From an uncultured Chloroflexia bacterium (GTDB taxonomy: Bacteria > Chloroflexota > Limnocylindria > Limnocylindrales > CSP1-4), in NCBI GenBank assembly GCA_963745405.1, contig CAVUWY010000002.1:533013-597012 (forward strand): a DNA stretch of 64,000 nt, in the 5' to 3' direction. The position numbers and the translations under genes were made by a program. Each line of letters opens with the position of its first letter. The stretch's first letter is position 1. The notes under the pieces are model-generated. The model was given only the letters and a program-made list of their open reading frames with translations. It ran no database searches and was not told the DNA's origin. Of this stretch, positions 14,692 through 17,961 are shown one piece after another.

Positions 14692-14877
14692 TCGAGTGAT
14701 CACCTCCCGCGGCCCGGGATCGTGCTCGACATCGCGGGTGGGCCCCGCTCGCGATGCTCCCTCAGGCCGGGAGCGTGGCGCTCGCCGGGTCCGAAGGCTC
14801 GCGGAGTCTAGCCGAGGGTCAAGCCGCGGTCAAACGTCCACGGCGAGCTCGGGACGAGCTCCGGGCGAGTGGCCCTG

Positions 14878-14930
14878 GGCGTCCGTCACTCAGCTCGGCG
14901 TCCGTCACTCAGCTCGACGTCCGTCGCCAC
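14878..14930. repeat. 19-nt tandem direct repeat, two exact copies plus a degenerate third
   Basis: GGCGTCCGTCACTCAGCTC at 14878..14896 and 14897..14915, followed by GACGTCCGTCGCCAC. The repeat lies in the region upstream of rpsU. Confidence 0.9.
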
Positions 14931-15146
14931 TTCGCGTGGCGATCCTGTGACACCTACCCACGAGGCGGGTCGTAAGTCCAAGTTACACGCTCGAGAGGCG
15001 CGCTCCGACCCGAAACCACGCTCGAACGAGGCCGGGATGACGCGGCGGCGGGTCGATCGCGTGTCTAACACCCGTGCCACGGGTAGGTGTCACGGATCCG
15101 GGCCGTGGAGGCCGATACCACCCGTCCGGTGGGTGAGCGCGGTATG
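14925..15146. repeat. copy 1 of a ~220-nt noncoding element (hairpin plus 13-bp long-range inverted repeat plus conserved core)
   Basis: Hairpin CGCCAC-ttcgc-GTGGCG (14925..14941). GTGACACCTACCC (14947..14959) is the exact complement of GGGTAGGTGTCAC (15081..15093). The core CTAACACCCGTGCCACGGGTAGGTGTCACGGATCC is shared with the copy at 17746. Confidence 0.7.
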
Positions 15147-15170
15147 TGAGGGCGCCCCGAAGATCGGCCG

Positions 15171-15437
15171 CTATCGACCGCCGGCGATCGCCGGGATCAC
15201 GTGGACGGTGGCGTGGGCACCGACGGGGGTCGAGAGGACCGCTCGATCTCCGTCGACGAAGACGTTGATGTGCTCGCGGATGACGGGGCCCGCGTCGAGC
15301 AGCCGGTCCGCCACCCCCGGCCAGGACCCGTCGAGGCCGGCGATGACCTCGGCGACCGTGGCACCGTCGATCGTCGCCCGGTGGGGCAGCCCCGGCACGA
15401 GGACCGCGAGCGATCGCGGCAGGATGACCTGTGCCAT
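15171..15437 (-). CDS. MoaD/ThiS-family ubiquitin-like small protein
   Basis: ATG 15437. The 88-aa protein MAQVILPRSLAVLV...INVFVDGDRAVLSTPVGAHATVHVIPAIAGGR shows a beta-grasp pattern, with the C-terminal Gly-Gly followed by one extra Arg. Confidence 0.75.
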   Translation of the reverse strand: MAQVILPRSLAVLVPGLPHRATIDGATVAEVIAGLDGSWPGVADRLLDAGPVIREHINVFVDGDRAVLSTPVGAHATVHVIPAIAGGR

Positions 15438-15471
15438 GGCCGCGCCTGCTCCGGTCCGGTCCGTCCGGCGC

Positions 15472-16560
15472 CTAGGCCGGGATCCGGACCGCCTCGACCG
15501 ACCAGATGGGCGGCAGGGTGGTCGTGATGGCGTTCCAACTCGCGCCGTCGTCGGCGCTCGCGTAGAGCTGGCCGGTGCTCGTCCCGAAGTAGACCCCGAC
15601 CGGATCGAGCTCGTCGCGGGCCATCGCCTCGCGGAGCACGCCGAGATAGGCATCCCGTTGGGGAAGGCCCCGATCGCCCCGGATCCACGAGTCGCCGCCA
15701 TCGTTCGTCCGCCACACGGCCGCCTTTCCCTCCGGCATGAACCGACCCTGCTCGGCGCCGTTGAGCGGGATGGCCCAGACCGTGAGCGGATCGCGCGGAT
15801 GGGAGACCATGCCGAATCCGAACTCGGACGGCAGGCCTTCGGTGATCTCCTGCCAGGACACGCCGCCGTCGAACGAGCGATACACCCCGCAGTGGTTCTG
15901 CTGGTAGAGGTGCTCCGGCTCACCCGCGGCCGCGACGAGCTTGTGGACGCACTGCCCGGTCTCGGGATGCGGGTCGGGCATGAACCCGGCTCGGACCCCC
16001 GAGTTGCGCGGCTCCCACGACTTCCCGTTATCGCGGGTCTCGAACGTGCCGACGGCCGAGATCGCGACCCACATCCGGTCGGCATCGGTCGGGTGGGGCA
16101 CGATCGTGTGGAGGATGAGGCCGCCGGCGCCGGGCTCCCAGGTAGGCCGGGTCGGGTGGTTCGTCAGGCCCTCGACGTGAGCCCACGTCCGGCCGCCGTC
16201 TTCGCTGCGGAACAGCCCGGCCGGCCCGACCCCGGCGAAGAGGCTGCCGTGGGCCGCGGTCACGTTCCAGACGGCGGTGATCTTCGGCCCATCGTCGCCG
16301 TAGGTGATGCCGTCGCTCGACTGGGTCCAGGTCTTGCCGAGGTCGTCGCTGCGGAACACGGTCGGCCCATACCACGGGCTGCCGCCGCCGGCGTAGATCG
16401 TGCCGGTCGACGGATCCATGCTCACGTCCTGGATCGGCCAGCCGTCGCAGGTCGGGCCGCGGACCTCCCAGTTCCGCCGGGCTGTGTCCGACTCCACGAT
16501 GAAGGCGCCCTTCTTCGTGCCGACGAGGAGGAGGATGCGATCGGTCACGGCGTGCCTCAT
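15472..16560 (-). CDS. BNR/Asp-box repeat beta-propeller protein (sialidase-like / Ycf48-like fold)
   Basis: ATG 16560, 362 aa. There are six S-x-D-x-G-x-(T/S)-W boxes: RSDDLGKTW, RSEDGGRTW, TRDNGKSW, RSFDGGVSW, RTNDGGDSW, ASADDGASW. The rest of track ORF 15472..17667 is antisense shadow. Confidence 0.85.
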   Translation of the reverse strand: MRHAVTDRILLLVGTKKGAFIVESDTARRNWEVRGPTCDGWPIQDVSMDPSTGTIYAGGGSPWYGPTVFRSDDLGKTWTQSSDGITYGDDGPKITAVWNVTAAHGSLFAGVGPAGLFRSEDGGRTWAHVEGLTNHPTRPTWEPGAGGLILHTIVPHPTDADRMWVAISAVGTFETRDNGKSWEPRNSGVRAGFMPDPHPETGQCVHKLVAAAGEPEHLYQQNHCGVYRSFDGGVSWQEITEGLPSEFGFGMVSHPRDPLTVWAIPLNGAEQGRFMPEGKAAVWRTNDGGDSWIRGDRGLPQRDAYLGVLREAMARDELDPVGVYFGTSTGQLYASADDGASWNAITTTLPPIWSVEAVRIPA

Positions 16561-16570
16561 CCCTGTGCCC

Positions 16571-16584
16571 GATACCGTGGTATC
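16571..16584. promoter_or_regulatory. palindrome GATACC-GT-GGTATC in a divergent intergenic region
   Basis: Perfect 6+6 inverted repeat between the divergent BNR gene (start 16560) and EEP gene (start 16663). It is a candidate operator only. Confidence 0.25.
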
Positions 16585-16662
16585 CGGGATCGATGACTGG
16601 TCCCGTCGAGGGTACCGCGGACGCAGACCGCCCGCGTCGTTCTCCGTGGTAGGGTCCGCGCG

Positions 16663-17700
16663 ATGGCCGGGGTCGAGGACACGCCGCTGCCCGCCGGCCC
16701 GGCCGAACGGCCGCGCGCCCGGACCGCACTCCTCCTCGCGGCGGCCGCGATCCCACTCTGCGTCGTGCTGGCGACCGCCATCGAGATCGTCCTCCGGGCG
16801 CAGCTCGGTCCTCTCGCCTTCTTCGCCGCGTTCGAGCAGTGGTTCTTCCTCGGGCTCGTCGTCCTGGTCCCCCTCGCCCTCCTCCACGATGCCCGGGCCA
16901 TGCGGATCGCCCTCGCCGTCGCCCTGGTCGCCGGGGTCGTCCGGTTCGGCGGCGAATTCGTCTCGCTCCCGGCGGGGACGGTGGCCGGGCCGGAGGTCCG
17001 GGTGCTGGCCTGGAACATCCAGTACGACGGCGGCACGCCCGAGCTCGACGCGTCGATCATCGCGTCGGCCGACGTCGACATCGTGGCGCTCGAGGAGCTG
17101 ACGTCGGCCAAGGCCCGGGTCATCGGCTCGGATCCCGCGGTGCTGCAGCGCTTCCCGTATCTCGTCCTCCTCCCACGCGGCCCGCTCGACGGCGTCGGCC
17201 TGCTGAGCGATCGGCCACTGACCCTCATCGACGACTTCGACTCGCCGGAAGGACTGGCGGCCATCGTCTCGACGCCGGCCGGACCGATCACCGTGATCGT
17301 CGCCCACCCGGCCCACAGCCCCATCGAGGCCGTGGACCCGTTCTCGCTCGTATTCGGTTACGACGTGACCGACCGGGATGCCGACCTGGCCCGCCTTCGG
17401 GCGCGGATCGATGCCGCGATCGGCCGGGGGGAGCGGGTCATGCTCCTCGGCGACATGAACACCACCCCGACGGAGCCCGGCTTCGGCACGCTCGTGGCCG
17501 GCCTCCGCGACGCTCACGCCGAGGTCGGTCTCGGGCCGGGCTGGACGTGGCGCCCGCAGGCCCTCGTGCCGTTCGACCTCGGCATCGTCCGCATCGACGT
17601 CGTGGTCACGAGTCGAGACCTTGCGCCGATCGAGTCGCGCGAGGTGTGCCTGCCGGTCAGCGATCACTGCCAGCTGTGGGCGACGATCGCGGGGTCGTAG
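16663..17700 (+). CDS. endonuclease/exonuclease/phosphatase (EEP) family membrane protein
   Basis: ORF 345 aa with N-terminal TM spans, then VRVLAWNIQYDG...DIVALEEL...VIVAHP...MLLGDMNTTP...VSDHCQLWATI (EEP catalytic motifs). Confidence 0.8.
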   Translation: MAGVEDTPLPAGPAERPRARTALLLAAAAIPLCVVLATAIEIVLRAQLGPLAFFAAFEQWFFLGLVVLVPLALLHDARAMRIALAVALVAGVVRFGGEFVSLPAGTVAGPEVRVLAWNIQYDGGTPELDASIIASADVDIVALEELTSAKARVIGSDPAVLQRFPYLVLLPRGPLDGVGLLSDRPLTLIDDFDSPEGLAAIVSTPAGPITVIVAHPAHSPIEAVDPFSLVFGYDVTDRDADLARLRARIDAAIGRGERVMLLGDMNTTPTEPGFGTLVAGLRDAHAEVGLGPGWTWRPQALVPFDLGIVRIDVVVTSRDLAPIESREVCLPVSDHCQLWATIAGS

Positions 17701-17745
17701 GTGGGCCGGCGGGCCGGTATCGATGGGCCTCGAGCTGGCCAGGGA

Positions 17746-17961
17746 GGGCCTTGCGGCCCCTTTCGTGACCCCTACCCGTCGAGCGGGTGGTATGTCCTCC
17801 TCGTGTCCCCGAATGGCCGTCGGACGGATCGATCCACGCTCGACCGATACCTACGGGCAGGCCGGACGGCAGAAATCTGTGGCTAACACCCGTGTCATGG
17901 GTAGATGTCTCGGATACAGGCGTCCGGGAGCGGTACGACCCGCCAGGTGGGCATCCGTATG
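17746..17961. repeat. copy 2 of the ~220-nt noncoding element
   Basis: Hairpin GGGCC-ttgc-GGCCC (17746..17759), GTGACCCCTACCC (17765..17777), CCACGCTCGA block, CTAACACCCGTGTCATGGGTAGATGTCTCGGATAC (17883..), ...CCAGGTGGGCATCCGTATG. Orientation and length match copy 1. Confidence 0.7.

Follow-up and report, generated by a model that had tools for sequence, protein, structure and literature searches.

The locus and its repeats

The window analysed here is a stretch of 64,000 nt (C2:533013-597012) from the assembly of an uncultured Chloroflexota bacterium of the Limnocylindrales (3.2 Mb, 71% GC, 85% complete). It contains, according to Pfam, rpsU and an acyl-CoA synthetase-type gene (AMP-binding) and, between them, three genes to which Pfam assigns the same identities as an earlier reading of the DNA, the first-pass annotation, had done: a ThiS/MoaD-like gene (called MoaD-like there), a BNR propeller gene and an EEP gene. 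Each of the two outer spacers carries a non-coding stretch of slightly more than 200 nt, referred to here as copy A (next to rpsU) and copy B (next to the synthetase gene). We consider, with moderate confidence, that both are members of an undescribed family of small, non-coding, non-autonomous mobile repeats that resemble miniature inverted-repeat transposable elements (MITEs), repetitive extragenic palindrome (REP) doublets forming hairpins (REPINs) and bacterial interspersed mosaic elements (BIMEs). Judging from the genomes searched, the family would be confined to one family-level lineage of uncultured Chloroflexota.

The first-pass annotation had described 14925-15146 and 17746-17961 as homologous elements in direct orientation with roughly two-thirds identity. 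Indeed, the two stretches align colinearly from end to end in the same orientation, with 147 of 229 columns identical (64%) and a score 11.9 standard deviations above those of 500 dinucleotide-preserving shuffles. Their core gives a blastn E-value of 5e-8 in a whole-genome search (a MAFFT alignment was also made), and a 24-nt core pattern has four matches in the window, two arms per copy, against 0.03 expected. All the shared blocks listed earlier were found in both stretches, and so was the exact 13-nt inverted repeat of copy A, where GTGACACCTACCC (14947-14959) is complementary to GGGTAGGTGTCAC (15081-15093). The absence of a conserved open reading frame (ORF) also holds, as none is common to the copies of the family. 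The short GC hairpins that had been counted as a shared part of the element are present in both stretches but are not conserved in other family members; from this comparison they are probably flank rather than element, and the one abutting copy B is possibly the EEP gene's own hairpin.

A family of composite elements

Although the two copies and the three genes that they bracket are real, the pair is not alone in the genome. Searches by blastn (suggested in the first-pass annotation as a check for more copies), a mismatch-tolerant motif scan, nhmmer and a covariance model (CM) recovered 12 composite loci and two solo units, about 31 units in total, with the composite loci spread across the 2.85-Mb contig C2. 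All unit matches in the genome are either inside these 12 short composite elements or solo.

The unit is ~45 nt long, with the consensus CATACSACCCG-N5-CGGGTAGGTGTCACGGATC (S = C/G), and its predicted fold is ATACC-ACCCGCC / GGCGGGT-A-GGTGT, a 12-bp stem with one bulged A. An element is composed of one reverse unit on the left, a centre of ~90 nt and one to three forward units on the right, the latter repeated with a period of 49-52 nt; its size is about 150-215 bp, with inverted ends of 30-45 nt. Inverted unit pairs are found 119-155 nt apart at all 12 loci, and the spacing from left to right unit is 134-135 bp in five copies despite their diverged spacers. The centre is variable except for (tcgat)CCACGCTC(ga), a conserved motif that gives the element its polarity. 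The tail of the last forward unit has been lost in copies A, B, C, D and E, which accounts for the length of ~215 nt seen in the first pass. The second right unit of copy A, which is degenerate, occupies the position of the second unit in copies C, D, E, J and K.

Overall identity among the copies is about 50-73% in the family alignment, and this range suggests that the family is probably old in this genome. Copies A and B are 57% identical in that alignment, no closer than unlinked copies, and the most similar ones are C, D and E, which cluster within 34 kb (62-73%). Units and centre are conserved, whereas the spacers have diverged to near-random sequence.

Filled and empty sites among relatives

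Three genomes of the same genus (G001, G004 and G005) were compared with the present one. At site A, the gap from rpsU to the ThiS-like gene is about 360 nt here, compared with 36-46 nt between the two genes in both G001 and G005. No copy is present at site B in any of the three, and in G001 the EEP gene is followed by the synthetase gene after about 70 nt. In G001 and G005 the ThiS-like and BNR genes are in place without either repeat, and in G001 this is also the case for the EEP gene. Other sites show the opposite arrangement: in G001, copies are found both in front of glyA and in the spacer from dnaK to an ABC-ATPase gene, while in this genome there is no unit upstream of glyA, and the dnaK-ABC spacer is about 80 nt long with no copy. 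The intergenic DNA of the congeners is too diverged for filled and empty sites to be aligned for breakpoints.

Sharper ends were obtained from another genus, in which two species share a 190-bp element that is 82.6% identical (L089:1508-1694 in G094, L090:1508-1697 in G118). The flanks of this element, over 1.3-1.5 kb on each side, have nothing in common by blastn or tblastx; its neighbours are HtrA and OsmC genes in G094, and TrkA and Hsp20-MerR genes in G118. From this pair, the element begins with CCTGCCACATACCC... and finishes with ...GGGTATTTGGCAG.

Some sites are occupied in two genera each. These are the rplL-rpoB spacer (here and in G075), the convergent spacer between the ligD ligase and prim-pol genes (here and in G133) and the region upstream of a GFO_IDH_MocA gene (G063 and G081). 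The rplL-rpoB spacer, filled here, is short in most of the 38 genera compared, the congener G005 among them, where it measures about 60-190 nt; units were absent from all 29 such loci and from the long rplL-rpoB spacers of other genera. The rplL-rpoB and ligD copies of different genera resemble each other no more than unrelated copies do, and the shared sites could be either insertion hot spots or old sites whose copies were lost in most lines.

Additional differences among the congeners concern the same genes. The EEP gene (16663-17700; loci L079-L081) is variable: in G001 it has 67% nucleotide identity versus about 78-80% for its neighbours, in G004 it is missing and the BNR and synthetase genes are 108 nt apart, and in G005 its position holds 860 nt with no detectable similarity. 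In G004 (L081, G004:C51) an unrelated insert of about 470 nt is found in the spacer where copy A sits here, and the rpsU/ThiS-like spacer seems to be a repeated landing place. Upstream of glyA, both this genome (C2:1141200-1141300) and G001 (L085:600-660) have a conserved stretch in common, gcgatgtgggac.ata.c.gcc, which precedes the start codon by about 150 nt; it is independent of the repeat and may be a leader element.

Distribution

With the unit model at E<=1e-4, matches were obtained in 6 of 401 genomes of the same taxonomic family, belonging to 5 of its 49 genera. A looser threshold in a smaller run yielded a few further genomes; related copies are found beside other neighbour genes in at least nine other genomes from seven genera. 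Each of the other genomes holds one to four units, and the present genome has the most by far. In a phylum-wide sample of 400 genomes, the unit model matched this genome only, and the exact pattern had no match in GTDB species genomes and contigs or in JGI metagenome contigs. A plasmid or phage origin was discarded, as collections of both gave no match.

The hairpin of the unit

Within this genome the stem of the unit is almost invariant and, as a consequence, covariation is not significant there. Between genomes, a test on 22 units from nine other genomes, whose alignment was fitted to the model and therefore favours structure, gave 83.9% paired cells versus 76.6 +/- 1.3 in 500 shuffles, 21 double-change cells versus 7.3 +/- 2.2, and a covariation score of 0.255 versus 0.139. 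None of the 500 shuffles reached any of the observed values, and slid controls pair at 34-43%. Additionally, G-U replaces G-C at several positions of the stem. In G133, all the units seen have ACGCA/TGCGT for ACCCG/CGGGT, that is, two compensated pairs (loci L091 and L095), which suggests a genome-wide concerted change or a single variant founder. A folded hairpin, of DNA or RNA, accounts better than a symmetric duplex operator for the conserved bulged A and for the covariation in the outer stem.

Genomic context of the copies

All the copies are intergenic, in tandem, divergent and convergent arrangements, and their neighbours are functionally unrelated. Besides those of copies A and B, the neighbours are an EamA and a YciI-like gene (copy C), a methyltransferase and a cyclase-AAA-TPR gene in divergent orientation (D), a desaturase and a methyltransferase gene (E), the LigD prim-pol gene and a membrane protein gene followed by the LigD ligase gene (F), LPG-synthase and OpuAC genes, convergent (G), VWA and cyclase genes, convergent (H), a DHODH gene and one of unknown type (I), DUF1918 and CO-dehydrogenase flavoprotein genes (J), recX and rny (K), and rplL and rpoB (M). 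Because these genes have no common function, the copies were not taken as the mark of a regulon. Copy A sits upstream of a promoter-like site of rpsU and consequently outside the rpsU leader. The coordinates of the features are collected in Table 1.

Table 1. Features of the two copies and their surroundings (window positions), and positions of the family on contig C2
Feature	Position	Strand	Basis or remark
Promoter-like site of rpsU, TTGACC-17-TAGACT	14805..14833	-	Stretch aligns with congener regions
19-nt tandem repeat, 2.5 units, abutting copy A	14878..14930	+	Sequence, congener comparison; within the stretch missing from congeners
GC hairpin CGCCAC-ttcgc-GTGGCG abutting copy A, outside the family consensus	14925..14941	+	Unconserved in other copies
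Copy A, whole: inverted left unit, centre, right unit 1, degenerate right unit 2	14939..15146	+	Alignments, covariance model
Copy A left unit: hairpin ACCCG-N5-CGGGT and tail AGGTGTCAC, read on the minus strand	14939..14983	-	CM R1 match C2:547951-547995, 41.3 bits; 24-nt pattern match at 14947-14970, 1 mismatch
Copy A centre motif CCACGCTCGA, defines element orientation	15016..15025	+	Family alignments; kept in most copies
Copy A right unit 1	15057..15101	+	CM R1 match C2:548069-548113, 46.3 bits; exact pattern match 15070-15093
Copy A degenerate right unit 2, ATACCACCCGTCCGGTGGGT..., without the AGGTGTCAC tail	15115..15146	+	Weak nhmmer match, E 0.87
ThiS/MoaD-like gene	15171-15437	-	Pfam
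BNR propeller gene	15472-16560	-	Pfam
EEP gene	16663-17700	+	Pfam
GC hairpin GGGCC-ttgc-GGCCC, 3' of the EEP gene, abutting copy B	17746..17759	+	Unconserved in other copies
Copy B, whole	17757..17961	+	Alignments, covariance model
Copy B left unit	17757..17801	-	CM R1 match C2:550769-550813, 47.2 bits
Copy B centre motif CCACGCTCGA	17834..17843	+	Sequence, family alignment
Copy B right unit 1, degraded tail GGGTAGATGTCTC	17875..17919	+	CM R1 match C2:550887-550931, 38.8 bits
Copy B degenerate right unit 2, GTACGACCCGCCAGGTGGGC...	17933..17961	+	Sequence; alignment to copy A
Composite loci on C2 (approximate)	173.4 k (M), 547.9 k (A), 550.8 k (B), 669.5 k, 696.8 k, 702.7 k, 1012.5 k, 1463.6 k, 1730.1 k, 1948.4 k, 2521.8 k, 2813.3 k
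Solo units on C2	2191.4 k, 2401.0 k

Tandem repeats also adjoin two other elements. One of ~16 nt (caccccgaggcgcgct), with about four units, abuts copy K (C2:2813184-2813260), and one of 11 nt (gcgcggcgacg), with three units, abuts the solo unit at 2400959 (C2:2401000-2401040). Together with the one next to copy A, they may reflect slippage promoted by the hairpin or an insertion footprint. Copies D and E, which have the same orientation (C2:696019-703681), each abut a class I methyltransferase gene, and D and H each abut an adenylate/guanylate cyclase gene; these recurring neighbours are probably a coincidence. In the ORFs beside copy G (C2:1463949-1464323 and 1462878-1463534), the matches to OpuAC and to the LPG-synthase TM domain are limited to the C-terminal part of each, so these genes may be truncated or frameshifted, or the ORF calls incomplete.

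A probable mobile repeat

The first-pass annotation had offered three candidate explanations for the pair: a small structured RNA family, a MITE-like element with terminal inverted repeats, and recombination or regulatory sites delimiting a mobile cassette. The second is best supported by the comparisons made here, which show dispersed intergenic copies, filled and empty orthologous sites, and a discrete copy between non-homologous flanks. Under this explanation, the elements have inserted into intergenic spacers of every gene arrangement, and the family has expanded to 12 loci in this genome. The hairpin-bearing inverted ends, together with the absence of a visible target-site duplication, suggest movement by a single-stranded, hairpin-recognising route, such as that of REP/REPIN elements with their REP-associated tyrosine transposase (RAYT); the ends of IS200/IS605 elements behave in a similar way. 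The mobilising enzyme, however, would not be a recognisable RAYT. As units and centre were kept while the spacers drifted, we attribute their conservation to selection for recognition by a trans-acting factor. Effects on neighbour genes, such as termination, mRNA stability or insulation, would then be a by-product.

Several observations weigh against mobility. With copies 50-73% identical, no recent burst or ongoing movement is shown here, and a host function could explain equally well why units and centre are strongly conserved while the spacers are near-random. No target-site duplication is visible: there is none at the sharp ends of L089 and L090, and in this genome the ends are too ragged for one to be judged. 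The three sites occupied in two genera could be ancient conserved elements instead of insertion hot spots. Moreover, no enzyme could be linked to the family. A six-frame search for PF01797 (Y1_Tnp, RAYT/IS200) gave no match in this genome or in any of 11 relatives, the controls being positive in 6 of 14 and the searched genomes 63-96% complete, so RAYT was rejected as the mobiliser. There is no transposase gene beside any copy inspected, whether in this genome or in nine others (a census of transposases across the whole genome was not part of the analysis), and no helix-turn-helix (HTH) or nuclease gene adjoins any copy inspected. Finally, at 85% completeness, the assembly may lack a partner gene that the genome has.

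Other candidate partners gave similar results. No HTH-nuclease-like neighbour gene was seen at the 12 loci of this genome or at 12 loci in nine others, without a fold-level search elsewhere in the genome. A NucS-like partner was also rejected, being absent from the inspected neighbourhoods and by Pfam (NucS_C, PF01939, in 0 of 12 genomes). A parent insertion sequence with matching ends was not found among the unit matches or the inspected neighbour genes.

It is conceivable, although we hold this only tentatively, that the hairpin units are recognition sites of a non-RAYT enzyme, in a repeat-enzyme partnership like that of REPINs and RAYTs but built on a different catalytic fold. A protein of the HTH/PD-(D/E)XK type would be one candidate, and the family would be either an orphan or served in trans. 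This version is compatible with the selection on the hairpin, the absence of both a target-site duplication and a RAYT, and the uniform stem change in G133.

Alternative explanations

As an alternative to mobility, the units could act at the RNA level, being transcribed in mRNAs or small RNAs as terminators, mRNA stabilisers or processing sites of the RNase III type. Each unit is a predicted stable GC-rich hairpin in which G-U takes the place of G-C at several positions of the stem, the predicted folding energy of whole elements is about -63 to -104 kcal/mol for the forward strand, and several copies lie between a co-directional stop codon and the next promoter (upstream of rpsU, and between rplL and rpoB in two genera), which is where terminator or insulator hairpins would be expected. 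However, the reverse strand folds equally well, no terminator-like U tract was found at the elements, and the copies occur in all orientations relative to their neighbours. A search with Rfam over the window produced no match at gathering score, in line with the failure of the first-pass annotation to recognise an RNA family; the best permissive E-values were 6.9 and 9.1, neither on the elements. For the 12 elements, RNAalifold gave no consensus structure beyond the inverted-repeat pairing of one arm with the other, with a covariation term of 0.07, and the long-range pairing shows no bias for G-U over A-C (37 versus 44 mismatches). The motif CCACGCTC is not preferentially in a hairpin loop either (3 of 16 observed versus 2.1 expected). 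The proposed structured RNA thus finds no support beyond the hairpin of the unit, and, because the same spacers are empty in close relatives, the copies are dispensable. Consequently, we regard a function in RNA as unlikely.

A role as host DNA sites, with the units bound by a dimeric sequence-specific protein such as a nucleoid organiser or a global regulator, seems to us a little more doubtful still. The core ACCCG-N5-CGGGT is palindromic and nearly invariant in this genome, and the G133 units all have the same symmetric change of half-site, as if the specificity of a protein had shifted. Inverted pairs about 134 bp apart, a spacing that five copies maintain, and tandem units about 50 bp apart would permit cooperative binding or looping. 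By contrast, the 49-52 and 134 bp spacings are not whole helical turns, and the bulged A and covarying outer stem fit a folded hairpin better. In addition, the neighbour genes have no functional theme, the same promoters are without sites in congeners, and no candidate regulator is linked to any copy. A mobile repeat accounts better for the dispensability seen at orthologous sites and for the heterogeneity of the neighbours than either this explanation or the one at the RNA level.

The reading of A and B as boundaries of a mobile three-gene cassette, that is, as sites of the integron attC or Xer type, is very improbable. It was suggested by the two copies in direct orientation around the genes, and it might appear to gain from a second direct pair (D and E, which bracket about 6 kb) and from the imperfect long hairpin, bulged base and variable centre, which superficially resemble a folded attC site. 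The occurrence of the genes without repeats in G001 and G005, in the same place, removes it. Furthermore, the bracketed genes are on both strands and have spacers of their own, the ten remaining copies occur singly at unrelated loci across 3 Mb, and the ends have no GTTRRRY/RYYYAAC core sites. No integron integrase was found either: the best match to TIGR02249 scored 82-90 bits versus a cut-off of 265, and the matches were generic tyrosine recombinases only.

Lastly, a local segmental duplication, in which the similarity would be duplicated flanking sequence without any family, can practically be ruled out by the copy count: although A and B are 2.8 kb apart and C, D and E lie within 34 kb at 62-73% identity, there are twelve loci across C2 and related copies beside other genes in other genera, and A and B are no closer to each other than unlinked copies are.

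Comparison with known repeats

The nearest comparison is with the REP, REPIN and BIME elements of Proteobacteria, for which we relied on PMC3116915 (Bertels and Rainey 2011) and PMC3733652 (Di Nocera et al. 2013). As in these, the unit of the Limnocylindrales family is a short GC-rich imperfect palindrome, the elements are strictly extragenic with no target-site duplication seen, and there are lineage-specific variants as well as presence and absence among relatives. Like REPINs, they have head-to-head units around a spacer and are able to form one long hairpin; like the BIMEs of E. coli, they are mosaic, with conserved linkers and tandem additions of units. There are also clear differences. 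REP palindromes have a conserved GTAG (or CGTC) tetranucleotide tag at the 5' end (PMC3733652), whereas in the present unit GTAG occurs solely within CGGGTAGG, where it overlaps the 3' foot of the stem, and the other strand has CTAC, not GTAG, in front of the stem. While a REP unit measures 20-40 bp, the one described here is ~45 nt long with a conserved asymmetric tail, AGGTGTCACGGATC. Unlike in REPINs, the spacer, of ~90 nt, has its own conserved motif. The number of copies is small, 12 loci and about 31 units here compared with tens to hundreds per genome for REP/REPIN elements, and no RAYT gene was matched in this genome or its 11 relatives, while the cognate RAYT of those elements is usually flanked by the repeats.

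A second group for comparison is that of the bacterial MITEs with long terminal inverted repeats, among them Correia/NEMIS in Neisseria and ERIC/IRU in enterobacteria. These elements are often co-transcribed with their neighbours, and Correia elements make a TA duplication. The Limnocylindrales elements share with them a size of 100-200 bp, the lack of coding capacity, a conserved internal motif, long inverted ends able to form one big hairpin, and an intergenic location with filled and empty sites among strains. As small non-coding elements with inverted ends and insertion polymorphism, they have the features of this type of MITE. On the other hand, no target-site duplication is seen, unlike in Correia elements, the searches revealed no parent insertion sequence that has these ends, and the ends are themselves hairpins that can be repeated in tandem, unlike in either Correia/NEMIS or ERIC/IRU.

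As to integron attC sites, the imperfect inverted repeat, the extrahelical base, the variable centre and the two direct copies around genes are points of likeness. They differ in that there is no integron integrase, no array and no R'/R'' core sequences, and the bracketed genes, unlike integron cassettes, are present in relatives that have no repeats.

Significance

If the reading of the copies as mobile repeats is correct, they belong to an ordinary kind of bacterial "junk" repeat, although the family itself is undescribed. A false lead is thereby removed, since the three genes are not a mobile cassette, and the repeats are neither a riboswitch nor a dedicated regulator of rpsU or of the acyl-CoA synthetase gene. 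For annotators, this is a caution that such repeats should not be called RNA genes. The repeats mark variable spacers and are, in this sense, useful for strain typing. Finally, should the factor that mobilises or binds them be identified, it would reveal how REP-like repeats can be maintained in the absence of the enzyme by which they are defined in Proteobacteria.

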